Below, in pieces: positions 1 through 45,030 of a stretch of 45,030 bases of DNA. This DNA is from a virus (Duplodnaviria > Heunggongvirae > Uroviricota > Caudoviricetes). The position numbers and the translations under genes were made by a program. The stretch spans positions 1 to 45,030 of the IMG/VR virus record IMGVR_UViG_2851949629_000008, one strand, 5' to 3'. The notes below the pieces were generated by a model that worked only from the letters and a program-made list of their open reading frames with translations, searched no databases and had not been told where the DNA came from. The first letter of the stretch is position 1. The number at the start of each line of letters is the position of its first letter.

Positions 1-267
1 TTACTCTGCAGGTGAAGTCGGCCACTCAATATCAGGTGCGGTTGATGTATCAACACGGTTCAGCAACACCCGATACTTCTTCCAGGCTTCCAGCAACGAG
101 TTTTCTTCCTCCGTTGCGATCTCCAGATCTACAGCATCCTGAAGTGGCGCAATATGCTCACTGAATTCCTGGATGTAGAACTGTGTGGTGACGGTCTTCC
201 AGCCATTCGGCTCCTGCTGTATCGAAGCATACCAGGCTATTTCAATATCGCTATGCTGCGGCAGCAT
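1..267 (-). CDS. tfa: Tail fibre assembly protein (Tfa) C-terminal domain ORF, 88 aa, internal start
   Basis: Translation ends ...[27 protein letters not shown], matching the lambda/E. coli Tfa C-terminus as recalled; lacks the N-terminal half. Confidence 0.6.
16..70. repeat. Direct repeat copy 1 (tfa 3' end, ~55 bp)
   Basis: ggccactcaatatcaggtgcggttgatgtatcaacacggttcagcaacaccc recurs at 1066-1120 with 1 mismatch (g/a at the 24th base of the quoted string). Confidence 0.8.
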
Positions 268-323: not shown

Positions 324-992
324 ATGGTGAAATTAATGAAAAAAAACACAGATGATGGGGCTAAAATTTACACACCACTTACCCTAAAGCTTTATGACTG
401 GTGGGTTTTGGGAGTATCAAATCGGCTTGCATGGGGATGTCCTACAAAGGAACACCTTCTTCCACACTTTCTAGAACATTTAGGTAACAACCATCTGGAT
501 ATTGGTGTTGGAACTGGGTTTTACCTTACTCACGTACCTGAGAGTAGTCTGATATCTTTAATGGATTTGAACGAAGCTAGCCTGAACGCGGCATCGACAA
601 GGGCTGGGGAATCAAAAATTAAACATAAAATTAGCCATGATGTTTTTGAACCTTATCCCGCGGCATTACATGGTCAATTTGATTCCATTTCCATGTTTTA
701 CCTTCTTCACTGCCTGCCTGGAAATATATCTACAAAAAGCTGTGTAATACGCAATGCGGCGCAGGCCTTAACTGACGATGGAACTCTATACGGAGCCACA
801 ATTCTTGGTGACGGCGTTGTGCACAATAGCTTCGGTCAAAAACTGATGCGCATTTACAATCAAAAAGGCATCTTTTCAAACACAAAAGATTCCGAAGAAG
901 GCTTAACACATATACTCTCAGAGCATTTCGAGAATGTTAAAACCAAGATTAAAGGTACTGTAGTAATGTTTTCCGCTTCAGGGAAAAAATAG
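324..992 (+). CDS. Class I SAM-dependent methyltransferase-like cargo protein (222 aa)
   Basis: Motif I-like LDIGVGTGFYL followed by an acidic residue ~20 aa later (ISLMDLNE); appears AT-rich by eye; opposite strand to the phage late genes; sits between tfa remnants. Confidence 0.5.
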   Translation: MVKLMKKNTDDGAKIYTPLTLKLYDWWVLGVSNRLAWGCPTKEHLLPHFLEHLGNNHLDIGVGTGFYLTHVPESSLISLMDLNEASLNAASTRAGESKIKHKISHDVFEPYPAALHGQFDSISMFYLLHCLPGNISTKSCVIRNAAQALTDDGTLYGATILGDGVVHNSFGQKLMRIYNQKGIFSNTKDSEEGLTHILSEHFENVKTKIKGTVVMFSASGKK

Positions 993-26176: not shown

Positions 26177-26251
<75 letters not shown>

Positions 26252-26254
26252 ATA

Positions 26255-26330
<76 letters not shown>

Positions 26331-26332
26331 AC

Positions 26333-26409
26333 TGGACCGCCACCGGGGACTCGAACCTCGCACACTCAACTTAAAGGGTTGACGCTCTTTCCTGATGAGC
26401 CAGTGGCGG
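26333..26409 (-). tRNA. tRNA-like gene, anticodon loop CCUUUAA (UUU, Lys-type; C33 is noncanonical)
   Basis: 77 nt, 7-bp acceptor stem, T-loop TTCGAGT, CCA end; one A-C mismatch in the T-stem. Confidence 0.4.
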
Positions 26410-26410
26410 T

Positions 26411-26486
26411 TGGTGGCCCTTGCTGGATTTGAACCAGCGACCTGGCGATTATGAGTCGCTCGCTCTCACCACTGAGCTAAAGGGCC
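26411..26486 (-). tRNA. tRNA with CAU anticodon (Ile2/ileX-like or Met)
   Basis: GGCCCTTTAGCTCAGTGG...CTCATAA...GGTTCAAATCC resembles E. coli ileX as recalled. Confidence 0.7.
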
Positions 26487-26684: not shown

Positions 26685-26713
26685 AATATATGCCTTTCAA
26701 TCTGCTTTTGCAA
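26685..26713 (-). promoter_or_regulatory. Candidate late promoter (pR'-like) overlapping the 3' end of the Q-like gene
   Basis: Minus strand TTGCAA-17 nt-TATATT; by-eye sigma70 match only. Confidence 0.3.
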
Positions 26714-27386
26714 CACTTTGCTTTGAAAATGCCGCCTTTTGTTTTGAACGTGTTCTCATTACAAACAATAAAGCCTCACTATCCAGTCGGTGAAAAATGT
26801 GTTTCATTGCAACCCAGTGACGAGTAAATGTTTTGGACCAGTTTTTAGTTGTCACTCCCGCCAGTAATGCCAGCTCCTGGTATTCATAACCTTCCCCACC
26901 AAAAAGTTCTGCTTTTACTTCCTGCGCCGCCAGCCAGATTAATTTTTTCAGGCGTTCCTGCGTTTTCCCTGCAATTTTTCTGGTACCGGATTGAGTATTA
27001 AATTCATTCCACGCCCACTGTGTTATCGCGATCTGATATTCCCAACAAATACTCCCGCTGTAACACCACAACAACCAGGCTTTATGATGTTCTTCAAGAG
27101 ACAGAACCGCCCGCCGCCACGATGATGTCGAAAACTCAACCGGACTGACCAGAGGAATTGACGTCCCCTTCGCCAGCGATTGCTTTCCCGGGATTGGTGG
27201 ATTATCCCGCGTTATCATTTTTCCAGTCACTTCATCGCGGTACCGGATTTTTTTACGCCTGTAACGCCCTGTATCAAACATGGCATTCTCCTGCCAGGCC
27301 TCAAGCTGCCCTTTTGTTGATCCACTCAAATCGGCGGTGGCAATCATGAGTTGCTCACGAACAAACTGTAAATACTGGTTATTCAT
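26697..27386 (-). CDS. Putative late antiterminator Q (QuuQ-type family)
   Basis: 229 aa directly upstream of the tRNA cluster and lysis cassette, downstream of rusA; assignment by position and recalled family resemblance. Confidence 0.45.
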   Translation of the reverse strand: MNNQYLQFVREQLMIATADLSGSTKGQLEAWQENAMFDTGRYRRKKIRYRDEVTGKMITRDNPPIPGKQSLAKGTSIPLVSPVEFSTSSWRRAVLSLEEHHKAWLLWCYSGSICWEYQIAITQWAWNEFNTQSGTRKIAGKTQERLKKLIWLAAQEVKAELFGGEGYEYQELALLAGVTTKNWSKTFTRHWVAMKHIFHRLDSEALLFVMRTRSKQKAAFSKQSVAKAD

Positions 27387-27742
27387 GCATACTCCAGTTC
27401 TGTGATTTTTATCCCCAACCGCCCACCAGGAACAAGCTGACCGCGCACAATATTAATTTCATCAAACTGCTCGTCGTCTATGAGCAGCCCCGCATGCGTC
27501 AGTACATCCAGTGGTGCCTTCAGGATATTGTCCAGGTCACGACGGCGCTTATCCGGTGGCTCTGCAATAATTTCTATTGCCGGCCTTCCGGACAGGTTTA
27601 ATTTCAGTTGCTGCTGGCGAACAATAAGCGCCACATCACGGCGATAACGCTCACCGACTTTTGATACAAAATATGTGCTGCCACGGCGTCGCCAGTAAGT
27701 GTTCACCGTCGGCGGGTAAGGTAAAACCAAATCTATGAGCAT
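27383..27742 (-). CDS. rusA: Holliday junction resolvase RusA
   Basis: PDKRRRDLDNILK... motif and ~119 aa length match RusA. Confidence 0.9.
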   Translation of the reverse strand: MLIDLVLPYPPTVNTYWRRRGSTYFVSKVGERYRRDVALIVRQQQLKLNLSGRPAIEIIAEPPDKRRRDLDNILKAPLDVLTHAGLLIDDEQFDEINIVRGQLVPGGRLGIKITELEYA

Positions 27743-30557: not shown

Positions 30558-31409
30558 TTAAACACGAGGCATATAGGTCTGATTCCGATATTCAATTGGA
30601 GTCAGACCTTTTAATTTCAGGCTAATTCTTCTGCTGTTGTAGTATTCAATATATTCCGTAACAGCATCCTTCAGTTCGCTTATATTACTGAACTCATCAA
30701 GATAAAAACACTCCGACTTTAAGGTTCCAAAGAAACACTCCACCACAGCATTATCCAGACAATTGCCTTTTCTGGACATGCTTTGTTTAATACCATGTTC
30801 TTTAAGGATATTTTGATATCTTCTCATACGATACTGCCATCCCTGGTCAGAGTGCAGAACAGGATGCTCGTGAGGATTAAGCTTTTTGAATGCCTGATCG
30901 AGCATATTCTCAACCATGTTCATCACTGGTCTTTCCGAAAGGCTGTAAGAAATAACTTCGTTGTTGAAGAGATCTATTACTGGAGACAAATACAGCTTGC
31001 GCCCATTGACTGCAAATTCAGTAACATCGGTAACCCACTTCTCGTTTGGCCGCGTAGCCTTGAAATCTCTTTGGAGAACATTAGGGGCGGTTTGCCCTAC
31101 CTCTCCTCTGTAAGAGCGGTATCGCTTGACCTTAATCGCTGCTTTAAGTGAGAGGGTTCCCATCAGGCGCTGAACAGCTTTATGGTTAATCTGTTTCCCT
31201 TCTCGATGAAGAGACAGCGTTACCCTACGGTATCCGTATCGGCCTCTATTCTCGTGATAAATCTCACTAATACGCTTTTTAACGTCCGCATACTTGTCAG
31301 GCTTGCTGAGAGCCTTTAGATGATAATAAAACGTACTGCGCGGTATCTCCGCAGCCCTGAGAAGCTCATCAAGAGGATAAAACTGCCTTAGCTCGTTGAG
31401 TACTTTCAC
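30558..31409 (-). CDS. insK: IS150 transposase OrfB (InsK, DDE)
   Basis: 283 aa IS3-family integrase-core ORF. Confidence 0.9.
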
Positions 31410-31927
31410 TTTTTCGTGGGATGAGCTAAGGCTTTCAGCTTTTTTAGATACATAAGCCGCGTTTCAAGAAATCGAACTTGCCTTTCAAGATCCTCAATGC
31501 GTCGGTCTTTTGACAGCTCCAATGCTGATGCCGCTTTTTCTGGATCAACTGATATTGCAATGTTTCTTTTGGTGCCAATCTTGAGCGCGCGTAAACCAGC
31601 TTCTCCGCGCTCTTCATAGACCTTCAGCCACCTGGCTACAGAACCACTACCAGCAAGCATAAAGTGAGCAGCAGCCTGATTAAGGGACATGTGCTGCTCG
31701 ATCACAGCTTTCACGACCTTAATACGCAACTCTGGATCAGCACTAACGCCTTTAGGTTTGGGAATTAAACCTTTTTCTCCATGTTTTTCATAGAGGGCAA
31801 CCCATGTCCTGACCTGGGTTCGGGGGACACCAAAACGTGCCGAGATGATCCTGTAACCATCATCAGTTGTGAAGTAGTGATTCACGACTTCAAGGCGCTT
31901 TTCAAAAGGGTATTTTGGCTTTGACAT
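31406..31927 (-). CDS. insJ: IS150 OrfA (InsJ, HTH)
   Basis: 173 aa; overlaps orfB. Confidence 0.9.
   Translation of the reverse strand: MSKPKYPFEKRLEVVNHYFTTDDGYRIISARFGVPRTQVRTWVALYEKHGEKGLIPKPKGVSADPELRIKVVKAVIEQHMSLNQAAAHFMLAGSGSVARWLKVYEERGEAGLRALKIGTKRNIAISVDPEKAASALELSKDRRIEDLERQVRFLETRLMYLKKLKALAHPTKK
31422..31428 (-). promoter_or_regulatory. IS150 -1 programmed frameshift heptamer AAAAAAG
   Basis: Minus-strand A AAA AAG at the orfA/orfB overlap, as expected for IS3-family transframe transposase. Confidence 0.6.
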
Positions 31928-32236
31928 ATTAGGGGCTATTCCATTTCATCGTCCAACAAAATGGGTGCAGTACACTTCGATTTATAGTCGGGTGGGGCTT
32001 TTCTCTATCTGCCTTTTGGTGTTCATGCCTGAGACAGATAGCCTCAAGCACCCGCAGCAATTCTACTTATGACGCAATTTAATGACAACAACTCTACAGC
32101 GGTAGTGTGTTTAACTATTGACATTGATTAACTCATTATTCAAAATTTTTGCGTACGCATTAATGATTTTGTGTCGTTGTTGTGATGGTAAAAAAATCAC
32201 AAACGATCTAACAATAACATAGGTGATATTTTCAAT

Positions 32237-33377
32237 ATGGAAATTAAGCAAGTTATCGTTCATGAACTAATTAAAGAAGCAAAAAAGGATTTTGATTTTT
32301 CTAAGCCGTATCAGCTTAGATCCACTCCTCTCGATAAAACCAATCCAATTGTTATAAAACTTATTCAAGACATTTCATCTTTATATGGAACCAAAGGCAA
32401 TTCTGCACATTATGGCGTTTTTAAAGAGGAGAAAACAGAACAAGGGCCTGTGCCATCAATATTTGAAGAGTATTCTCAGTCAGAGGATAACATTAATGAA
32501 AAGTTTGTGCCTTTTTCTATTGAAGTGATGAAGCAACTTGTAAAAAAAGCCAAAGAAGAACCTTGGTCATCTGGTGGTTTTATTGTGTTTTGTGACTATA
32601 TTGTAAATAACAATAAATTCTTTTTAATTGCAATGATTAAAAAGAAAAATGGTGTTACTATCAGCAACAAACTCGAACCTGAAGAAATGATCCATTTGGA
32701 TCTATCCAAAATACACCAAGCAGCAAGAATAAATTTCAATCTCTACCAACAATATAAAACTGCTGATGAGTCTGAAAAAATTGACTTAAGTTATCTAAGT
32801 TTCGTAAGTAAAGGAGTGGGTCAATCCACATCAGCATATTTTATTGCAGCAATAGGATGCGACAAATCACTTGCAGCAGCAAAAGCCACAAAAACTACCA
32901 ACTGTCGCAAAACAATTTTTTAACCAAAAACCAGAACTTAAAGCATGTGCCAATAGATTTAAACATGACGTTATTGCATATTTAGACACACAAGCAGCTA
33001 AAAATTTGTCAGCCCGATTGAGTGATATTGAAGTAATTGCAGCACGTCACATGACAAATTTAGATGAGTCTACCAAAGAATCTTACACTCACGAATTAAT
33101 TCTTTTTTTAAATAGTGAAAATGTGAGAATCCCAACTGAATTTGTTATCAGTAAACGGGCGTTGAAAGACATTAAAAACATCACCTTTAAGACTGATGAG
33201 ATTGGATTTAATTTTGACAAGTCTCTCCTTGGAGTGACAGCTGATGATGATGTGTGGTACGATGAAACAACTGGAAGATTATCATTTACAAACTTACCAG
33301 CTGAATTTAAGGCTAAACTAAGCGCTGTGGTAAAAGAAAATTTAAAAATAAGGGATAGTGGAAAAGAAAATGGCTAA
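32237..33377 (+). CDS. NdpA/YejK-like (NA37 family) nucleoid-associated protein homolog, interrupted by an apparent +1 frameshift near 32889-32893
   Basis: N-terminus MEIKQVIVHELIK and GGFIVFCDYIV align with E. coli YejK as recalled (INQIALHQLIK, GGFVLFCHYRY); track splits it into 32237-32923 and 32871-33377 (the latter with a TTG start); AT-rich. Confidence 0.55.
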
Positions 33378-34590
33378 TTTATCAACGGTTGTAGATTTTT
33401 ATAGAGCATCATCGAAGCCCCAATTCGACGGACGTTCTTTTTCTGCAACTGTTGAAATAAATAATAACAATCAACGTTTGGTAAACTTGTTAGTAAATTC
33501 ACATAAAGCCTACGGTTATTTTGAAGATGTTGATATTAATAATGAGTTCATTGACGAAGACGATTTAAAATCACACCCAATTAAAATTGGAGATAAATTC
33601 TCATACACTTACATATCCCCTAAAAATGGAGCAGAACGTTTCTATAACTCAATTCAAGAGTTCCTTTGTATAAACTCACTCAAGAAAGGTGTAATTCCTA
33701 AAGAGTATTACATAATCGATGAGGATTTTCATCCGTCTGATTCAAGTAAACCGGACGAAATTATAAAAATCGAGAAAATTTGTGCAATTATTTCTTCCCT
33801 GGCTGAGATTGCGCACTTTCACGATACAAAATCGGAATCTTCAAATTATCGTTTAGTTTTCGTGAAAGATTCTGACGCAAAATCAACATCTATTATTTTA
33901 GAAACGTGCATTACACCTAAGATGCTCAATATAAATGACATTGATGATGCTATCATCAAGAGTCTTTTAGATGTAAAAAACGCCCAAATCCCCCATCAAG
34001 CAGAAAAAACAGGTATTTTCAGGAATACCATAGTGGAGTTTATTCTCGATAACAAATATGATTTTGAAAACCTAATTTGCCATTGGGATAAATTTGTAAA
34101 GCTATTTGAAAATAATTTATCCACGTATATGAGTGGTTTTTCATTCCATAAGGCACGAAAAGAAATTGCGAAGTCTGAAGCAGAGTTTGCTGAAAAAATC
34201 TCAAAACTTATTACTGATTTGACGACAAAAGTATTATCAATCCCTGTGTCTTTACTGGCATCCTTCGGGATTATAAAACTAACATCAAGATCTGAAATGT
34301 TACTCGTTTTATTAGGTGTATTGTTAAGCTCACTTATTTTATATATGGTATTACTCAATCAGGATAAACAATTAAAACATATTTATCATGCTAAAGATAT
34401 AGCATTTATGCCTTTTCTAAAAAACAATGAAAATTATCCAGAAGACCTTAAGAAGGACATTAATGAGGCTCTATATGAACTATCAAAGAGCCAAACCAAA
34501 TGTGATAATACAATAAAGTTATTTATGTATTTGGCTTGGCTACCAAGTTCTATTGCAGCAGGAATATTTCTTGTGAAGATTTTTATTTAG
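33358..34590 (+). CDS. Large AT-rich protein with two C-terminal transmembrane helices (candidate membrane effector)
   Basis: 410 aa, no recognised domain; hydrophobic segments LLVLLGVLLSSLILYMVLL and LFMYLAWLPSSIAAGIFLVKIFI; overlaps upstream gene by ~20 bp. Confidence 0.5.
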   Translation: MEKKMANLSTVVDFYRASSKPQFDGRSFSATVEINNNNQRLVNLLVNSHKAYGYFEDVDINNEFIDEDDLKSHPIKIGDKFSYTYISPKNGAERFYNSIQEFLCINSLKKGVIPKEYYIIDEDFHPSDSSKPDEIIKIEKICAIISSLAEIAHFHDTKSESSNYRLVFVKDSDAKSTSIILETCITPKMLNINDIDDAIIKSLLDVKNAQIPHQAEKTGIFRNTIVEFILDNKYDFENLICHWDKFVKLFENNLSTYMSGFSFHKARKEIAKSEAEFAEKISKLITDLTTKVLSIPVSLLASFGIIKLTSRSEMLLVLLGVLLSSLILYMVLLNQDKQLKHIYHAKDIAFMPFLKNNENYPEDLKKDINEALYELSKSQTKCDNTIKLFMYLAWLPSSIAAGIFLVKIFI

Positions 34591-34599
34591 CTCTAACAG

Positions 34600-35127
34600 T
34601 TAGAGCATTAATACTCCCTCCAATACTCCCATCGCTGCTTGTATTTTTTTTCTAATAGTCCCATCCGCACATTTCTTTCTTTTTGCGATCTTTCTCAAAG
34701 AAACGCCTATTACAAAGTGGGCAACAATTAACTCATATTCATCTATTTTATATTGTCTGAGTCTCAATATCCACTCATCAATCACTCGCCCTTCATCATC
34801 GCTGCTCTGGCGACGCAATTTTTTACCATGAGGCACAACATCTTTATATTTATCAGCCACTTGCTGCCAGTTGATAGAACTATTTCCAGCTACAGCCCAA
34901 GCTCCCCAACAGTCCAAAATATCATATATATTAGCATTGCTATCTACCTGTTTTTTATATTCTTTTTTGAAGCGAGCAAGAAGCATCCTGGCCATCGTTA
35001 TTATTTCTATACTTGTAACTGATTCATAAGCATCAGGAGAAATAATCCTCCCATCACTTAATGCCCTTTCACTAAGATTTGCTATTTCCAATAATCGTTC
35101 TTTAGTTATTTCCATTATTATCTCCAC
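34600..35127 (-). CDS. Antiterminator Q-like protein (QuuD/phage-82 type)
   Basis: LDCWGAWAV...NWQQVA and LIVAHFVIGVSLRKIAKRKKCADGTIRKKIQAAMGVLEG resemble DLP12 QuuD as recalled. Confidence 0.6.
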   Translation of the reverse strand: MEIIMEITKERLLEIANLSERALSDGRIISPDAYESVTSIEIITMARMLLARFKKEYKKQVDSNANIYDILDCWGAWAVAGNSSINWQQVADKYKDVVPHGKKLRRQSSDDEGRVIDEWILRLRQYKIDEYELIVAHFVIGVSLRKIAKRKKCADGTIRKKIQAAMGVLEGVLML

Positions 35128-35229
35128 CGCCCTTTCGGGCGACCTCCTGATGCTCTGAGGGTGCAGAAATCCCTCCGGTTAAGGATTAAATTTTATTTAC
35201 AGTGCTGGATTTAATTATTCAGATTTGGA

Positions 35230-37968: not shown

Positions 37969-37986
37969 TGTTTTAAAATCAAAACA
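37969..37986. promoter_or_regulatory. Candidate operator (TGTTTT-N6-AAAACA) in the cI/cro intergenic region
   Basis: Inverted repeat TGTTTTaaaatcAAAACA ends at the cI start codon; a related site lies at 38691-38708. Confidence 0.35.
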
Positions 37987-38624
37987 TGAGCAAGCAAACT
38001 ATATCTGAACGCATAACCCAACGTATGCATGCGCTAAACCTGAAAGGCAAAGACCTTGTCAATGGCACTGGCGCATCAAAAGGCTCCGTAAGTCAATGGA
38101 TGAACGGTGGAGGAGCGCCGTCCTCGCGTTACATAAGTTCACTGGCAAAAATATTGAAAGTAAACGAAAATTGGCTTCTTAATGGAGGAGAGTTAAATAC
38201 AGGTGATTCGCTTGATCTATCTTTACCGCCGATAAAAACGGTTCCGCTACTATCACTTCAGCAGGCAGCAAGCTGGAGTGATTATATGAAAAATTCCTCA
38301 ATAACCTCTTGTGTGCAGCTTGTCGGAGAAATCCCGGTCAATACCTTTGCAGTTGTTCTAGAGAGTGACAGTATGTCAACATCTGGTGGGGGAGTTTCCA
38401 TCCCAAATGGTTCAACAGTTTTTGTTGATCCCGATCGAACCGTACAACCAGGAAATATTGTCCTTGCCTTACCCAAAGGGACCACAACACCTGTCATTCG
38501 TAAACTGGAGATAGAAGGGCCGGATATTCTTTTAGTCCCCACGAATCCTCGCTACCCTTCAATTATGCTGGATGATCTATCTTGCATATTGGGCGTATGC
38601 TTTAAAATTCAACAAGATATTTAA
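37986..38624 (+). CDS. CI-like repressor (HTH plus S24 LexA-like peptidase domain)
   Basis: N-terminal HTH; C-terminal S24-like autocleavage domain; 212 aa. Confidence 0.8.
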   Translation: MSKQTISERITQRMHALNLKGKDLVNGTGASKGSVSQWMNGGGAPSSRYISSLAKILKVNENWLLNGGELNTGDSLDLSLPPIKTVPLLSLQQAASWSDYMKNSSITSCVQLVGEIPVNTFAVVLESDSMSTSGGGVSIPNGSTVFVDPDRTVQPGNIVLALPKGTTTPVIRKLEIEGPDILLVPTNPRYPSIMLDDLSCILGVCFKIQQDI

Positions 38625-39472: not shown

Positions 39473-39874
39473 ATGGAATTTAAAGATTTACCAATGCCAT
39501 TCCAGGAAATGGCAGCGAATGTGGTTCGCTCTCAACTGGCGACTCTTGACCTGAGTACTGTAGAAAAGGAAACCATCGATACTATATCCGGTAACGTGCG
39601 TCGTGCCTTTATAGGTCTGTATGAAGAGAAGCGCCTATTCGGCGGACAGAATTTGCCTGAAAACAAGAATCAAGCAAATGATGAGAAGCTGAAACACATT
39701 ATCGCCTTACTTTTGGAAGACGCAAAACGTCTACAGCAACTGGAACCAAATGCAGGCACAGAGGCCCGCATTTGGATTGCCATGAAATCACTCAAATGTG
39801 AAAGCAGTGATTATTTCAAAACAACAATTAAAACTACTCAACTTTCGGGAGAGCTACTGAAGAAATTGCCATAA
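39473..39874 (+). CDS. Hypothetical early protein
   Basis: 133 aa ORF with SD GAGG upstream. Confidence 0.4.
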   Translation: MEFKDLPMPFQEMAANVVRSQLATLDLSTVEKETIDTISGNVRRAFIGLYEEKRLFGGQNLPENKNQANDEKLKHIIALLLEDAKRLQQLEPNAGTEARIWIAMKSLKCESSDYFKTTIKTTQLSGELLKKLP

Positions 39875-40151
39875 GAGCATGGTCTTTCTCTTGTTCTGCA
39901 AGATGAGCATTAATACCTGGTATGGTTTTTTCAAATTTATCTATCTGTTGAATAACAACTTCGCGGTATACGTTTGTTTTTGTACCACCAAGCGCAGCCG
40001 TTAATGCAGAAAGCATATTTAGTATCATATCAGTGCGATATGAAAGAATCCTGATAGCTTCATCTTGTTTTTCAATAATAGATTGCAGGGCCTCAATTTG
40101 CTTTTTATCCATTTCACCCTCCTGAGGGTTGGTAATTAAGGAGTTCTCCAC
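39834..40151 (-). CDS. Hypothetical coiled-coil protein on the opposite strand
   Basis: 105 aa; overlaps the 3' end of the upstream plus-strand gene. Confidence 0.3.
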   Translation of the reverse strand: MENSLITNPQEGEMDKKQIEALQSIIEKQDEAIRILSYRTDMILNMLSALTAALGGTKTNVYREVVIQQIDKFEKTIPGINAHLAEQEKDHALMAISSVALPKVE

Positions 40152-40500
40152 GGGTCAGGTGGAGTGCGTGCGCCGGACACGGGTGAACATCCGGCACTGA
40201 CAGTTTACTGAAAGGATATGTCCCTGAAAAGTCAGGGCATAACGCGAAAGCGCACGGCGAAATTGGTCTCTCTGTACGGTGTCGTTAAATTTAGTTCGAC
40301 CGTGCGCTTCCGGTTGTGGCAATCCGCGAAATGGCGCGGCGGTAAGTATGGCGGGGTTATTCCTTCCCCGTTGAGGACACCGGGTTGTCAGGTTGACCAT
40401 ACGCTTAAGTGACAACCCCGCTGCAACGCCCTCTGTTATCAATTTTCTGGTGACGTTTGGCGGTATCAGTTTTACTCCGTGACTGCTCTGCCGCCGTTTT
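40152..40500 (+). ncRNA. Candidate structured noncoding RNA region (GC-rich, multiple hairpins)
   Basis: Stems CCCTGA/TCAGGG, CCGCG/CGCGG, GGGTTGTCA/TGACAACCC, GGCGG/CCGCC followed by GTTTTTAAAG; ORFs here are Arg-rich and implausible; strand is uncertain. Confidence 0.3.
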
Positions 40501-40670
40501 TAAAGTGAATTTTGTGATGCGGTGAATGCGGCTGAGCGCACGCGGAACAGTTAAAACCAAAAACAGTGTTATGGGTGGATTCTCTGTATCCGGCGTTAAT
40601 TGTTAACTGGTTAACGTCACCTGGAGGCACCAGGCACTGCATCACAAAGTTCATTGTTGAGGACGCGATA

Positions 40671-40859
40671 ATGAAAACGTTATTACCAAACGTTAATACG
40701 TCTGAAGGTTGTTTTGAAATTGGTGTCACTATCAGTAACCCAGTATTTACTGAAGATGCCATTAACAAGAGAAAACAAGAACGGGAGCTATTAAATAAAA
40801 TATGCATTGTTTCAATGCTGGCTCGTTTACGTCTGATGCCAAAAGGATGTGGACAATGA
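40671..40859 (+). CDS. Hypothetical small protein (62 aa)
   Basis: SD GAGGA 7 nt upstream of the ATG; ATGA-coupled to the next ORF. Confidence 0.4.
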   Translation: MKTLLPNVNTSEGCFEIGVTISNPVFTEDAINKRKQERELLNKICIVSMLARLRLMPKGCGQ

Positions 40860-41047
40860 ATTCAGCATTTGCGCTTGTTCTGACAGTTTTTCTTGTTTCC
40901 GGAGAGCCAGTTGATATTGCAGTCAGTGTTCACAGGACAATGCAGGAGTGTATGACTGCAGCAACCGAACAGAAAATTCCCGGTAACTGTTACCCGGTCG
41001 ATAAAGTTATTCACCAGGATAATATCGAAATCCCGGCAGGTCTTTAA
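40855..41047 (+). CDS. Small Cys-containing protein with N-terminal signal-like segment (63 aa)
   Basis: MNSAFALVLTVFLVSG...; translationally coupled to the upstream ORF. Confidence 0.4.
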
Positions 41048-41140
41048 AACAGTTCCGTAATAAATATCCGGTTTCATTCTTATATGCCAGCAATGGCAGG
41101 GATTTGTTCATCCTTAAATCTGTCATGAGGTTAAAACAAA

Positions 41141-43612
41141 ATGAGTAAAGTCTTTATTTGCGCCGCTATTCCTGACGAACTGGCAACAAGGGAAGAAGGC
41201 GCTGTGGCTGTAGCCACAGCCATTGAAGCTGGCGACGAACGCCGTGCACGAGCAAAATTTCACTGGCAATTCCTGGAACATTATCCGGCTGCTCAGGACT
41301 GCGCTTATAAATTTATTGTCTGCGAGGATAAACCTGGCATACCCCGCCCTGCCCTCGATTCATGGGATGCTGAATATATGCAGGAAAACCGCTGGGATGA
41401 GGAGTCTGCTTCTTTTGTTCCGGTTGAGACTGAATCCGATCCGATGAACGTCACTTTTGACAAGCTGGCCCCTGAAGTACAGAACGCTGTCATGGTTAAG
41501 TTCGACACATGTGAAAACATCACCGTTGATATGGTTATTAGCGCACAGGAATTGTTGCAGGAAGACATGGCAACATTCGACGGACATATCGTTGAAGCGT
41601 TGATGAAAATGCCAGAAGTTAACGCCATGTATCCGGAGCTTAAGTTGCACGCCATTGGGTGGGTTAAGCATAAATGTATTCCTGGTGCTAAATGGCCCGA
41701 AATTCAGGCAGAGATGCGCATCTGGAAAAAACGTCGCGAAGGTGAACGCAAGGAAACCGGAAAATACACGTCTGTTGTTGATCTCGCCCGCGCCAGAGCC
41801 AATCAACAGTACACTGAAAATTCAACAGAAAAAATCAGCCCGGTCATTGCTGCCATTCATCGCGAATACAAGCAGACATGGAAAACACTGGATGACGAAC
41901 TGGCCTACGCTCTCTGGCCTGGTGATGTGGATGCCGGAAACATTGACGGCAGCATCCATCGCTGGGCAAAAAATGAAGTTATCGACAACGACCGCGAAGA
42001 CTGGAAGCGTATCTCGGCATCGATGCGCAAACAGCCTGATGCCCTTCGCTACGACCGCCAGACTATTTTTGGCCTTGTCCGTGGACGTCCGATCGACATT
42101 CACAAAGATCCTGTGGCACTGAACGAATACATTACTGAATACCTGACTACAAAGGGCGTGTTTGAAGATGAAGGAACAAATCAGAGCGCAACTGATACTC
42201 TCTCGTCGCCAGTACCAGAAACTGATGCAGTGGAAACGGCAATTCCGGACAACGAAAAAACCGAATGCAAAGTGGAAGTCGAACCATCTGTAGAGCGTGA
42301 GGGGCCGTTCTACTTCCTCTTCACCGACAAGGATGGCGAAAAATACGGTCGCGCAAACAAACTTTCTGGTCTGGATAAGGCGCTGGCTGCCGGGGCTACT
42401 GAAATCACGAAAGAAGAATATTTCGCCCGCAAAAACAGTACATACTCAGGTTCACAACAAAATACTGGTGCATCTGACACGACCGCACAGCCAGAACCGG
42501 TAAAAGTTACCGCTGACGAAGTAAACAAAATTATGCAGGCAGCCAATATCAGCCAGCCTGACGCCGATAAGTTGCTTGCTGCATCACGTGGTGAATTTAT
42601 TGAAGGGATTAGCGACCCGAATGATCCGAAATGGGTTAAGGGGATCCAGACCCGCGATACTGTGAACCAGAACCAGCAAGAAACGGAACAGAACGACCAG
42701 AAAGCGGAACAAAACAGCCCAAATACGCAACAAAACGAGCCAGAAACGAAACAACCTGAACCAGTAGTGCAACAGGAACCGGAAAAAATCTGCACCGCCT
42801 GCGGTCAGAGCGGTGGTGGCAACTGCCCTGATTGTGGTGCGGTGATGGGCGACGCAACATACCAGGAAACATTCGATGACAAGAACCAGGTTGAAGTTCA
42901 GGAAGACGATTCGGAGAAAATGGAAGGCGCTGAACACCCACACAAGGAGAATGCTGGCAGCGCTCAGGATCACGCCAGCGATAGTGAAACTGGCGAGACG
43001 GCAGATCCCTTAATTACGGTGAACGGTCATCGCGTTATCACATCCACCAGCAGGACGTGTGACCATCTAATGATCGACCTTGAAACCATGGGAAAAAATC
43101 CTGATGCCCCGATTATCTCAATAGGTGCAATATTTTTCGATCCGCAAACCGGAGATATGGGACCGGAATTTAGTAAGACTATCGATCTGGAAACTGCTGG
43201 CGGAGTCATTGATCGTGACACCATTAAATGGTGGCTTAAGCAATCACGCGAGGCGCAATCTGCCATTATGACCGATGAAATCCCGTTAGATGATGCACTG
43301 TTACAATTGCGGGAATTTATCGACGAAAACTCCGGTGAATTTTTTGTTCAGGTCTGGGGAAATGGAGCCAACTTCGACAACACGATTTTGCGCCGTTCAT
43401 ACGAACGGCAGGGGATCCCCTGCCCGTGGCGTTACTACAACGATCGCGATGTACGCACAATCGTTGAGCTGGGGAAAGCCATAGACTTCGATGCCAGAAC
43501 GGCTATTCCATTCGAAGGTGAGCGCCATAATGCACTTGATGACGCCCGTTACCAGGCAAAATACGTTTCAGTTATCTGGCAAAAACTGATCCCGAGTCAG
43601 GCTGATTTTTAA
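41141..43612 (+). CDS. RecE-like protein with a C-terminal DnaQ-like (DEDDh) 3'-5' exonuclease domain
   Basis: Middle region (LLAASRGEF..DGISDPNDPKWVKGIQTRD...CGQ.GG.NCPDCGAVMGDATYQETFD) matches Rac RecE as recalled; the C-terminal ~220 aa carry MIDLETMG, GNGANFD and HNALDDA exonuclease motifs. Confidence 0.75.
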   Translation: MSKVFICAAIPDELATREEGAVAVATAIEAGDERRARAKFHWQFLEHYPAAQDCAYKFIVCEDKPGIPRPALDSWDAEYMQENRWDEESASFVPVETESDPMNVTFDKLAPEVQNAVMVKFDTCENITVDMVISAQELLQEDMATFDGHIVEALMKMPEVNAMYPELKLHAIGWVKHKCIPGAKWPEIQAEMRIWKKRREGERKETGKYTSVVDLARARANQQYTENSTEKISPVIAAIHREYKQTWKTLDDELAYALWPGDVDAGNIDGSIHRWAKNEVIDNDREDWKRISASMRKQPDALRYDRQTIFGLVRGRPIDIHKDPVALNEYITEYLTTKGVFEDEGTNQSATDTLSSPVPETDAVETAIPDNEKTECKVEVEPSVEREGPFYFLFTDKDGEKYGRANKLSGLDKALAAGATEITKEEYFARKNSTYSGSQQNTGASDTTAQPEPVKVTADEVNKIMQAANISQPDADKLLAASRGEFIEGISDPNDPKWVKGIQTRDTVNQNQQETEQNDQKAEQNSPNTQQNEPETKQPEPVVQQEPEKICTACGQSGGGNCPDCGAVMGDATYQETFDDKNQVEVQEDDSEKMEGAEHPHKENAGSAQDHASDSETGETADPLITVNGHRVITSTSRTCDHLMIDLETMGKNPDAPIISIGAIFFDPQTGDMGPEFSKTIDLETAGGVIDRDTIKWWLKQSREAQSAIMTDEIPLDDALLQLREFIDENSGEFFVQVWGNGANFDNTILRRSYERQGIPCPWRYYNDRDVRTIVELGKAIDFDARTAIPFEGERHNALDDARYQAKYVSVIWQKLIPSQADF

Positions 43613-43676
43613 TGTTCAACCGTCGCCAGTTGTCGTTGATATTCTGCAACTGGCGCGTTCCGGAGTGATAGCCATG

Positions 43677-43943
43677 AGCGAACAGTACCTGATAACGCTC
43701 GACGAGTGGAAACCAAAACGGTTCAGTCTCCCAATAACAAACACTACCCTGGTGAAATACGGAAAACTAGGATACATCGTTCCAAGACCACAAAAAATTC
43801 GTGGGCGTTGGCTGATAGATCGCCGAGCAGTATTTGTTGGGCCTGGTGAAACGGGAATTGCGCCGGAAATTCATACTGGCGATGATGATGCACTGAAGGA
43901 GATTTTAACTCATGTCACCGAGGCCACGAAAAAACAGCACTGA
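43677..43943 (+). CDS. xis: Excisionase (Xis-like)
   Basis: Small basic protein immediately upstream of and overlapping int. Confidence 0.6.
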   Translation, partial: SEQYLITLDEWKPKRFSLPITNTTLVKYGKLGYIVPRPQKIRGRWLIDRRAVFVGPGETGIAPEIHTGDDDALKEILTHVTEATKKQH

Positions 43944-45030
43944 CGTAGCCGGTCTTTACGAAAAGTTTGATCGCAGAACTGGCAGAGTTTACTACCAGTA
44001 TAAAAATCCTGTGACTGGAAAATTTCACGGACTCGGAACAGACAAAGGTAAGGCAGAAAAAATCGCTTCCACAGCCAATCAGCGAATAGCTGCAGCAGAA
44101 GCTGAATATTTCATGCGCAAAATTGATGAAAGTCCGTCAGCAACAAAACGTCGGGGTATCAGATTAAAGGCATGGGTTGATCGATATCTGAAAATACAGG
44201 ACACGCGACTGAAAAATGGAGATATTGCAGCTACAACTCACAAAGAAAAAACTCGAATGGCTGCATACCTGGTTTCCCGTCTGGGAAACCACCCATTGAA
44301 AGAACTGGAAGTAAGAGACTTTGCATTAATACTGGATGAGTGGCTGGATAAAGACATGGTCAGCACAGCGAGAGTAAATCGTGGATTATGGGTTGATATT
44401 TATAAAGAAGCACAGCATGCAGGGGAAGTTCCTCCTGGATGGAATCCTCCGGAGGCTACCCGTAAACCGATCCCTAAAGTAACCAGAGCTAGGCTCACCA
44501 TGGAAGACTGGCAAAAAATTTACAATGCAACGCCTGAAAAACACTTTATCCGTAACGCAATGCTTCTTGCGATTGTTACTGGTCAGCGCCGTGATGACAT
44601 TTGCCACATGCGTTTTTCAGATGTGTGGAACGAACACTTGCATATCACCCAGGGAAAAACCGGAATGCGTCTGGCGTTACCGCTTACACTACGCTGTGAT
44701 GCCATTGGGATAACGTTAAAAGAAGTTATTGATGGGTGCCGAGACAGAATATTAAGTCCATATCTAATCCATAGTCGGCACCAGAAACAACCGAAGCCGA
44801 TGAGTAAAGACAACCTGAGCGACTACTTTGCCAAAGCACGGGATCTGGCTGGGATAATTCCACCAGCAGGAAAAACTCCGCCAACATTTCATGAACAACG
44901 CTCTCTATCAGAACGGCTGTACCGTGCACAGGGTATCGATACAAAAACATTACTAGGACATAAAGTCCAGGCAACCACCGATCGCTATAACGATACTCGA
45001 GGTCAGGAATGGGTTAAGTTGGTTATTTGA
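43912..45030 (+). CDS. int: Tyrosine integrase (lambda Int family)
   Basis: C-terminus FHEQRSLSERLY...LLGHK...DRYNDTRGQEW closely resembles lambda Int (HELRSLSARLY...LLGHK...YRDDRGREW); stop at the window end. Confidence 0.9.
   Translation: MSPRPRKNSTDVAGLYEKFDRRTGRVYYQYKNPVTGKFHGLGTDKGKAEKIASTANQRIAAAEAEYFMRKIDESPSATKRRGIRLKAWVDRYLKIQDTRLKNGDIAATTHKEKTRMAAYLVSRLGNHPLKELEVRDFALILDEWLDKDMVSTARVNRGLWVDIYKEAQHAGEVPPGWNPPEATRKPIPKVTRARLTMEDWQKIYNATPEKHFIRNAMLLAIVTGQRRDDICHMRFSDVWNEHLHITQGKTGMRLALPLTLRCDAIGITLKEVIDGCRDRILSPYLIHSRHQKQPKPMSKDNLSDYFAKARDLAGIIPPAGKTPPTFHEQRSLSERLYRAQGIDTKTLLGHKVQATTDRYNDTRGQEWVKLVI

Follow-up and report, generated by a model that had tools for sequence, protein, structure and literature searches.

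An intact relative of K-12 ydfE in a lambdoid prophage joins a RecE-like hinge to a DEDDh-type exonuclease domain

Does a RecE-like gene that stands directly before xis and int, with a nuclease domain of another type and with no recT at its side, still encode one half of a RecET recombination module? The question is raised by a large ORF near the right end of a 45,030-nucleotide stretch of tailed-phage DNA (IMG/VR record IMGVR_UViG_2851949629_000008; the window hereafter). A first-pass annotation, made from the letters and ORF translations, had read it as a domain swap in which a DEDDh 3'-5' exonuclease has taken the place of the PD-(D/E)XK nuclease of Rac RecE.

Identity of the gene and its operon

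The ORF listing confirmed the reading frame, with its ATG start and 823-aa product (Table 1), and PHROG 2082 ('exonuclease') matched all 823 positions of that product. The protein was 99% identical to K-12 YdfE over aa 1-256, and the Qin locus of K-12 and the window share the neighbours ydfA/B/C, dicF, dicB, ydfD and an integrase. By sequence and synteny, then, the ORF is an intact ortholog of the Qin pseudogene ydfE (b1577). In K-12 an IS2 element interrupts the gene after ~256 codons, and both hinge and exonuclease are missing there, whereas the window gene is complete. Pfam has named the families YdfE_N (PF27430) and YdfE_C (PF27432) after the K-12 gene and records both for every listed protein that is 89-96% identical to the 823-aa protein; the two models were absent from the Pfam copy that we scanned, and their assignment to the window protein is made via these relatives. 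Isolated phages carry the gene as well, e.g. mEp460, Tritos and HannyBb. The ydfE-type gene is under purifying selection over its whole length: among 79 intact unique alleles dN/dS was 0.23 for the whole gene and 0.16-0.30 across every gene region. A pseudogene or decaying fusion is ruled out by the same alleles and values.

Table 1. Features of the ydfE-type gene and its surroundings in the window (positions count from the first letter of the window).
Feature	Position	Strand	Basis
CI/LexA-type (S24) repressor, head of left arm	37986..38624	+	PF00717 + HTH_3, phrog_4
DicF small RNA, upstream in left operon	40445..40496	+	Rfam RF00039 (72.5 bits; gathering score 48)
dicB and ydfD (DUF1482) homologues, directly upstream	40566..41047	+	PF05358, PF07358; K-12 Qin synteny
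Whole gene, intact ydfE-family exonuclease by sequence	41141..43612	+	ATG start, 823 aa
N-terminal folded region, YdfE_N type: small alpha/beta domain and helical domain	41141..41752 (aa 1-204)	+	
Helical domain, RecE similarity starting at aa 262	41861..42172 (aa 241-344)	+	AlphaFold2 pLDDT ~90; BLASTP against RecE
Small beta-hairpin/helix domain	42296..42445 (aa 386-435)	+	AlphaFold2 pLDDT ~80; flanks pLDDT <50
Acidic low-complexity hinge, common to Rac RecE; crossover region of N- and C-modules	42563..43018 (aa 475-626)	+	blastn, composition
CxxC-x7-CxxC zinc-ribbon-like motif (C551, C554, C562, C565)	42791..42835	+	Kept in RecE; weak Pfam DZR match, aa 548-569
DEDDh 3'-5' exonuclease domain (polarity predicted), DexA/Rv2179c type	43064..43579 (aa 642-813)	+	PF16473; AlphaFold2; Foldseek; invariant columns
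Excisionase, directly downstream, at the position of Rac recT	43665..43943	+	phrog_629; PF07825, 23 bits (equal to cutoff)
Lambda-type tyrosine integrase, right end of prophage and window	43912..45030	+	PF09003 + PF00589

In a lambdoid prophage resembling Qin and mEp460, the gene appears to close the early-left (dicB) operon, which is under repressor control. As first annotated, xis and int come next, xis starting 52 bp past the stop codon of the ydfE-type gene. A stretch of 6.5 kb contained 6 promoter-like sites where 9.4 were expected, and the DNA just upstream of the gene had none; this lack of an excess fits transcription of the gene as part of the early-left operon, and from the position of the gene we infer that it would be expressed after induction. 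The whole window was present in none of the genomes of the E. coli collection, the best of them covering 69% of its last 25 kb.

The absence of a recT partner, also part of the first reading, held in every search made. We did not find an annealing protein among the left-operon ORFs by PHROG or Pfam scans, nor by Pfam among those remaining ORFs of 90 aa or more that are not structural, and BLAST of four RecT types against the window gave no match. The locus thus has no adjacent RecT/Beta/Erf/Rad52-like gene of the kind that defines RecET or Red. Beyond the window edge, the closest relative, 99.2% identical over window positions 40110-45030, has the host gene potC after the integrase.

RecE-like hinge and DEDDh nuclease domain

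Like Rac RecE (exodeoxyribonuclease VIII), the window protein is encoded upstream of xis-int and resembles it in overall length and layout, with a long N-terminal region of no assigned function followed by a C-terminal nuclease. Its central region is RecE-like, as first annotated, but that label covers aa 262-626 only. In BLASTP, K-12 Rac RecE aligned through residues 278-592 with aa 262-626 only (E 2e-62, 39% identity overall), and within this stretch ~aa 480-626 were nearly identical, so that the central hinge of RecE (RecE ~455-592, with its CxxC...CxxC) is present in the 823-aa protein. The NCBIfam RecE equivalog NF007259 scored 284 bits against a cutoff of 1269, its match being confined to aa 246-626 (model positions 271-603 of 877). 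The N-terminus is of YdfE_N type: the Pfam scan gave no match to the RecE N-terminal family Exonuc_VIII (PF06630) in the protein, and profile-profile comparison of YdfE_N with RecE_N (PF06630) by hhalign reached a probability of 22.6%. Structure comparison of the YdfE scaffold gave no informative relatives. We describe the protein as three parts, of which the scaffold (YdfE_N/YdfE_C) comprises three folded domains of no assigned function, and the acidic, mostly disordered hinge with its zinc-ribbon-like motif serves as the site at which prophages exchange modules. The third is a C-terminal exonuclease domain of the DexA/Rv2179c DEDDh type.

For this third part, PF16473 (Rv2179c-like 3'-5' exonuclease) matched aa 642-813 with E 2.4e-67 (226.5 bits against a cutoff of 27) over profile positions 2-177 of 177. 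The three motifs picked out in the first-pass annotation, DLET (646), GNGANFD (740) and HNALDDA (796), supply the catalytic set of Exo I DxE, Exo II D and Exo III Hx4D and align with the DexA residues; in an alignment of 68 sequences D646, E648, D746 and H796 were invariant and D801 nearly so. An AlphaFold2 model of aa 627-823 (pLDDT 92, pTM 0.87) has a predicted RNase H-like DnaQ fold, and its best PDB fold match in Foldseek was T4 DexA (8ken/8kel, E 2e-11, TM 0.72), followed by RNase T, Orn, REXO2 and ERI, with a Foldseek probability of 1.00 for DexA, RNase T, Orn and REXO2. A PD-(D/E)XK fold did not occur among the 50 best Foldseek matches listed for the model, and the PD-(D/E)XK family PF12684 did not match the 823-aa protein, while the K-12 RecE control matched at 4e-28. 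Domain annotation and structure prediction, two of the checks suggested at the outset, both gave a DEDDh domain closest to T4 DexA and not a RecB-type nuclease. The protein accordingly differs from Rac RecE, which has PF06630, a recT neighbour and a C-terminal PD-(D/E)XK 5'-3' nuclease (564-866, PF12684 type), in having neither of the first two and a DEDDh domain of predicted 3'-5' polarity at its C-terminus.

T4 DexA, itself a member of PF16473, also came first among PDB entries in the sequence search (E 1.5e-6) and is a proven 3'-5' DNA exonuclease (PMC12153337). The two are only 26% identical, and DexA, with 227 aa and additional loops, stands alone, whereas the window domain is part of a fusion with a 640-aa scaffold, is encoded by a temperate phage, and has Tyr in place of DexA W152. 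The founder of the family is M. tuberculosis Rv2179c; the window domain matches the family over nearly the full profile, though Rv2179c gave no PDB sequence match with the window protein at E <=0.01. Rv2179c is a stand-alone chromosomal 3' exoribonuclease, and our literature search found no paper tying it to prophages. PF16473 thus includes an RNA exonuclease as well as the DNA enzyme DexA. Family membership and fold suggest 3'-5' polarity for the window domain.

Modular exchange of nucleases and coupling of RecT to the PD-(D/E)XK module

Across related loci, the two N-terminal types (YdfE_N and PF06630 RecE) and the two C-terminal types (DEDDh and PD-(D/E)XK) occurred in all four pairings. 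The exchange is visible in the nucleotide sequence: K-12 recE matched the window gene by blastn only at nt 1425-1874 (78%), one surveyed locus (L003) matched it at nt 1447-2472 (96%), and another (L015) at nt 1-1494 (88%), placing the mosaic breakpoints within the shared hinge at aa ~475-625. RecT was present at none of the 86 DEDDh loci, and a RecT-family gene lay directly downstream at 87 of the 89 PD-(D/E)XK loci, the remaining two being cut by contig ends; these counts come from a highly redundant survey of 178 loci, representing ~7 independent lineages, and the association ignores phylogeny. DEDDh fusions of a more distant kind, and DEDDh genes that stand alone, likewise lay directly before xis/int without RecT, and no annealing protein was encoded in cis at any DEDDh-type locus examined. 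The nucleases are thus swapped modularly, and RecT is strictly coupled to the PD-(D/E)XK module. With four N/C combinations, breakpoints in the hinge and RecT only beside PD-(D/E)XK, the proposal of a domain swap rather than a RecET module is supported.

A third C-terminal module was seen on the same scaffold in P0255, P0267 and P0269. It had no Pfam match and no PDB sequence match, and the PHROG label 'exonuclease' on it is probably a transferred annotation.

Proposed role, alternatives and significance

In our preferred reading, which we hold to be probable, intact ydfE encodes a scaffold, a RecE hinge and a DEDDh exonuclease that would act 3'-5' on DNA ends after induction, and is not half of a RecET pair. 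As a Mg2+-dependent exonuclease the enzyme would attack free 3' ends, in all likelihood those of DNA, as in the case of DexA. Alone, it would serve in end-trimming or degradation, and not as the resection half of a two-component recombinase of the RecE/RecT type. In this lineage a single DEDDh module would replace the PD-(D/E)XK plus recT cassette of related prophages, and the phage would then depend for recombination on functions of the host and on the RusA that it encodes itself. The phage may gain by breaking down DNA of the host or of competitors, by scavenging nucleotides, or by removing 3'-ended DNA that host defences use.

The neighbouring DicB confers phage resistance, which would also suit a nuclease that protects the host, by defence or superinfection exclusion, through destroying incoming phage DNA (e.g. 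with modified cytosines, as reported for EcD in the HREX strategy) or trimming RNA-phage genomes. Such a role is suggested by EcD, a stand-alone E. coli homologue of DexA reported to degrade T4 DNA and to protect against T4 (PMC12153337), and by prophage ISG20-like DEDDh exonucleases reported to block RNA phages (PMC13344964). Of the two 5hmC-recognition residues, W152 and D169, the position of DexA W152 stays aromatic here (Y766), and D169 aligns with F783, with the acidic D782 and D784 beside it. We nevertheless consider this role unlikely, as the gene lies at the far end of a repressed early-left operon and is not a moron with its own promoter, the match to PF00929 (ISG20/RNase T type) fell below its cutoff, and PADLOC-DB 2.0 returned only a weak generic Cas-associated DEDDh match (E 1.7e-5, 23.5 bits) and no system-specific model. 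Moreover, the proposed defence form, HREX/EcD, is defined by loss of the DexA tetramer residue D90, to give a dimer-only, 5hmC-specific enzyme (PMC12153337), and that residue is present here as D718. The position of DexA S87 is Pro in the window protein. EcD and the window protein are both DexA-family DEDDh exonucleases encoded in E. coli, but EcD is stand-alone and reported without a D90 equivalent, which the window protein retains. The two are not the same protein, the published EcD primers giving a start of MIDTET... and an end of ...TIPETYD; its accession did not occur in any of eight clusters into which stand-alone homologues fell.

Two further roles would keep the enzymatic activity and change its target or its partner. 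An exoribonuclease like Rv2179c, trimming host or phage RNAs from their 3' ends in the lytic phase, would fit the name of the top Pfam family, the fold neighbours that follow DexA (RNase T, Orn, REXO2 and ERI) and the label 3'-5' exoribonuclease given to the protein by NCBI sources. DNA is cut by RNase T and Orn too, and the fold fits either substrate; we find this role very doubtful, since sequence and fold both place the domain nearest, among characterised enzymes, to DexA, a DNA exonuclease, and the gene occupies the slot of a DNA-recombination nuclease and is swapped with a DNA nuclease on a common scaffold. A part in homologous recombination after all, in which the ends it processes would serve RecA of the host or a RecT/Beta protein that another prophage provides in trans, is suggested by the operon position, which is that of recE and lambda exo, by the retained RecE hinge, and by the fact that E. 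coli often has several lambdoid prophages, the gene matching a median of 2 places per genome. T4 DexA is reported to have a part in double-strand-break processing during intron homing (PMC12153337). Yet a 3'-5' nuclease would remove the very 3' tail that annealing proteins and RecA need, and an annealing protein in cis was missing from all DEDDh-type loci examined. RecE, moreover, binds RecT via its PD-(D/E)XK domain, which is missing here. We judge a role in recombination to be highly improbable.

A broader and more speculative reading, which we regard as quite unlikely, is that the YdfE/RecE scaffold and hinge form a delivery platform with interchangeable effectors, namely PD-(D/E)XK with RecT, DEDDh, and two or more other C-terminal modules that are still uncharacterised. 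The DEDDh version, in ~75% of E. coli genomes, would then be a weapon deployed at induction against 3'-ended DNA and not a recombination enzyme, and its targets could be the DNA of competing phages or host defences based on ssDNA (retron or reverse-transcriptase products). If true, it would be a very widespread and so far unrecognised factor in conflict among phages and between phage and host.

The gene itself is already known: Pfam has its architecture and PGAP names it "3'-5' exonuclease", although our literature search found no functional paper on ydfE. Nothing known is overturned here. Of 5426 complete E. coli genomes, 4051 carried the DEDDh module, about three quarters and often in several copies, against 1730 with Rac-type recE, making the DEDDh form, which is under purifying selection, the commoner of the two in E. 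coli. What emerges is a testable rule, by which PD-(D/E)XK and recT travel as one cassette and DEDDh stands alone on the same scaffolds. By this rule, the genes called "exodeoxyribonuclease VIII" in lambdoid prophages would comprise two functionally different things, with consequences for their annotation, for the mining of prophages for RecET pairs in recombineering, and for estimates of which prophages support RecA-independent recombination.

A DEDDh exonuclease at the end of a ydfE orthologue

The first-pass annotation had read the C terminus of this 823-codon gene, from the motifs DLET, GNGANFD and HNALDDA, as a DEDDh 3'-5' exonuclease and not a PD-(D/E)XK nuclease, and both motifs and assignment were confirmed. 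The motifs lie at residues 646, 740 and 796, and the protein belongs to PF16473 (Rv2179c-like 3'-5' exonuclease), which matched residues 642-813 (E = 2.4e-67; 226 bits, cutoff 27). With PF00929, the general RNase_T/DnaQ model, the Pfam match stayed below threshold. Across 68 aligned homologues, D646, E648, D746 and H796 were invariant and D801 nearly so. An AlphaFold2 model of residues 627-823 was confident (pLDDT 92, pTM 0.87), its best match among solved structures being T4 DexA (8ken/8kel; E = 2e-11, TM 0.72), followed by RNase T, oligoribonuclease and REXO2. As no PD-(D/E)XK fold occurred among the best 50 structure matches listed, a RecB-family C terminus was excluded.

The first 256 residues were 99% identical to K-12 YdfE, whose gene is a Qin-prophage pseudogene cut by IS2. 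The whole left arm of the window was syntenic with the K-12 Qin dicB operon, in the order repressor, ydfA-like DUF1391 gene, ydfB, ydfC, DicF, dicB, ydfD, the gene, xis and int; the gene is an orthologue of K-12 ydfE. Public databases already list its family and domain architecture: proteins at 89-96% identity to it, named "3'-5' exoribonuclease" or "exonuclease" by NCBI sources, carry the precomputed Pfam architecture PF27430 (YdfE_N), PF16473 and PF27432 (YdfE_C), and PHROG 2082, "exonuclease", matched end to end. The gene is an ordinary and common feature; thousands of database entries match its sequence at 96-99% identity, and it is carried by isolated phages, among them mEp460, Tritos, HannyBb and the PPompW group. 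Among 5426 complete E. coli genomes, the full gene (coverage of at least 80%) was found in 3532 and the DEDDh module alone in 4051, in up to 7 copies, compared to 1730 with the Rac-type PD-(D/E)XK recE nuclease segment, making the DEDDh form the commoner.

Coordinates of features in the window
Feature	Position	Strand	Remarks
IS009 RNA family match	41-244	-	left end
SAM-methyltransferase-like ORF	324-992	+	left end
Four tRNA genes	26180-26486	-	downstream of Q
Q-type antiterminator gene	26697-27386	-	
RusA	27383-27742		
IS3-family transposase ORFs	30558-31409, 31406-31927	-	within 30558-32053
sok-like antitoxin RNA match	31898-32053	-	adjoins transposase ORFs
Low-GC island	32000-35130		GC ~0.34
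NdpA/NA37-like gene	32237-32923, 32871-33377	+	split into two overlapping ORFs; in island
410-aa ORF	33358-34590	+	no Pfam or PADLOC match; in island
Q-type antiterminator gene	34600-35127	-	
105-aa ORF	39834-40151	-	phrog_18692 (unknown function); opposite strand inside left operon
DicF small RNA	40445-40496	+	Rfam RF00039, 72.5 bits
The gene	41141-43612	+	
Excisionase	43665-43943		next gene after the exonuclease
Integrase, lambda-type	43912-45030		follows excisionase

The low-GC island has the look of a cargo insertion within the early-right region. The two Q-type antiterminator genes of this one prophage differ (PF06323 and PF06530), and a similar tRNA cluster occurs in the related locus L001.

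A RecE-type hinge and exchangeable ends

The central region had been likened to Rac RecE, and BLASTP bore this out, aligning residues 262-626 with K-12 Rac RecE 278-592, with near-identity from about residue 480 up to ETGE(T/V)ADP, where the RecE nuclease domain starts. The NCBI RecE equivalog model covered residues 246-626 only (284 bits, cutoff 1269). Residues 481-640 form an acidic, Q/N/S/T/P/G-rich stretch with a CxxC-x7-CxxC motif (C551, C554, C562, C565) also found in RecE. Residues 1-480 were modelled by AlphaFold2 as three folded blocks (1-204, 241-344 and 386-435) joined by low-confidence linkers. Structure searches starting from the N-terminal model gave nothing informative; the function of the RecE N-terminal region is itself described as unknown in a review of recombineering proteins (PMC11611040). 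Purifying selection acts on all four regions (dN/dS 0.16, 0.17, 0.30 and 0.28; 79 unique intact alleles). Three defining features of RecE were tested and found lacking, and we rejected classification as a RecE; by comparison, it would behave as an exonuclease of DexA type attached to a RecE-type hinge.

Searching 1.8 billion representative proteins recovered relatives that have just some segments of the protein in common with it. When these and fetched loci were classified by Pfam scans and BLAST, all four combinations of termini proved to exist: YdfE_N with DEDDh (the window, L001, L005, L006, L008), the RecE N terminus PF06630 with DEDDh (loci L003, L007; proteins P0245, P0251, P0254), the RecE N terminus with PD-(D/E)XK (Rac), and YdfE_N with PD-(D/E)XK (L015, L004/P0258). 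L003 was 100% identical to RecE over its first 200 residues, and L015 shared 86% identity with the window protein across residues 1-260. At the DNA level the gene's matches were confined to nt 1-1494 for L015, nt 1447-2472 for L003 and nt 1425-1874 for K-12 recE, indicating that the hinge is the shared crossover segment and supporting the earlier suggestion of a domain swap.

The YdfE_N/YdfE_C scaffold also carries other C-terminal modules (P0255, P0267, P0269, at loci L191/L192; P0248, at L189/L190). One is conserved, of ~270 aa and without Pfam or PDB sequence match; its motif AEYMxMRATExFGPxGxxWG may resemble Rad52-like annealing proteins. In L191/L192 a Sipho_Gp157 gene comes next; the C terminus of P0248 is distinct from this module. 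In an E. coli prophage (L184, 737-3127) the gene occurs as three consecutive ORFs of 456, 157 and 183 aa, with a stand-alone DEDDh exonuclease as the last. In other enterobacterial prophages, stand-alone versions of 180-190 aa are also common, always beside xis/int.

Coupling of recT to the PD-(D/E)XK module

The absence of recT, with xis/int next, likewise held. A 52-bp gap separates the stop codon from the excisionase gene. PHROG scans covered the left-operon ORFs, most of which were also run against Pfam, and Pfam scans covered all other non-structural ORFs of at least 90 aa. The matches comprised a CI-like repressor, DUF1391, DicB, DUF1482 (YdfD), YdaT, a replication protein, DUF977, DUF4406, two Q antiterminators, DUF968, RusA, an IS3-family transposase and the NdpA-like gene; proteins of RecT, Beta, Erf or Rad52 type did not occur among them. 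Four RecT types used as BLAST queries had no match in the window. A recT just outside is unlikely, since in the closest relative among complete E. coli genomes (99.2% identical over 40110-45030) the host gene potC comes after the integrase.

Across 178 loci (160 from IMG/VR; highly redundant, representing ~7 independent lineages), a RecT-family gene, either of K-12 type or divergent and confirmed as PF03837 (E = 2e-36 to 3e-44), directly followed the PD-(D/E)XK version in 87 of 89, the other two being cut by contig ends, whereas none of 86 DEDDh loci had RecT, in agreement with the first-pass view that this is not a RecET module. Among more distant cases, DEDDh fusions (721 and 848 aa) in other prophages and stand-alone DEDDh genes of 183-190 aa likewise all lie directly upstream of xis/int without RecT. 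The exchanged unit is thus the PD-(D/E)XK domain plus recT versus the DEDDh domain alone. We found no statement of this rule, and no functional study, in the literature.

Proposed activity and role

We infer that the protein would act as a Mg2+-dependent 3'-5' exonuclease on free 3' ends. An exoribonuclease is one rival reading; the substrate is probably DNA, since T4 DexA, the nearest characterised relative by sequence and fold and itself in PF16473, is a 3'-5' DNA exonuclease (PMC12153337), and the domain takes the place of a DNA nuclease in a slot for DNA metabolism. Another rival, a defence or exclusion nuclease, leans on reports of EcD and of ISG20-like prophage exonucleases; it is weakened in that EcD is a different protein, the D90-equivalent Asp is kept here, the PADLOC match was weak and generic, and the gene sits in a repressed operon. 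Given its position and the lack of promoter-like sites upstream, the gene would be expressed after derepression of the left operon. RusA is the sole recognisable recombination function of the phage. As a third rival reading, a recombination role might draw on partners supplied in trans. A 3'-5' nuclease would remove the 3' tails used by annealing proteins, and this, with the absence of an annealing protein, argues against a RecET-like recombination role for the gene.
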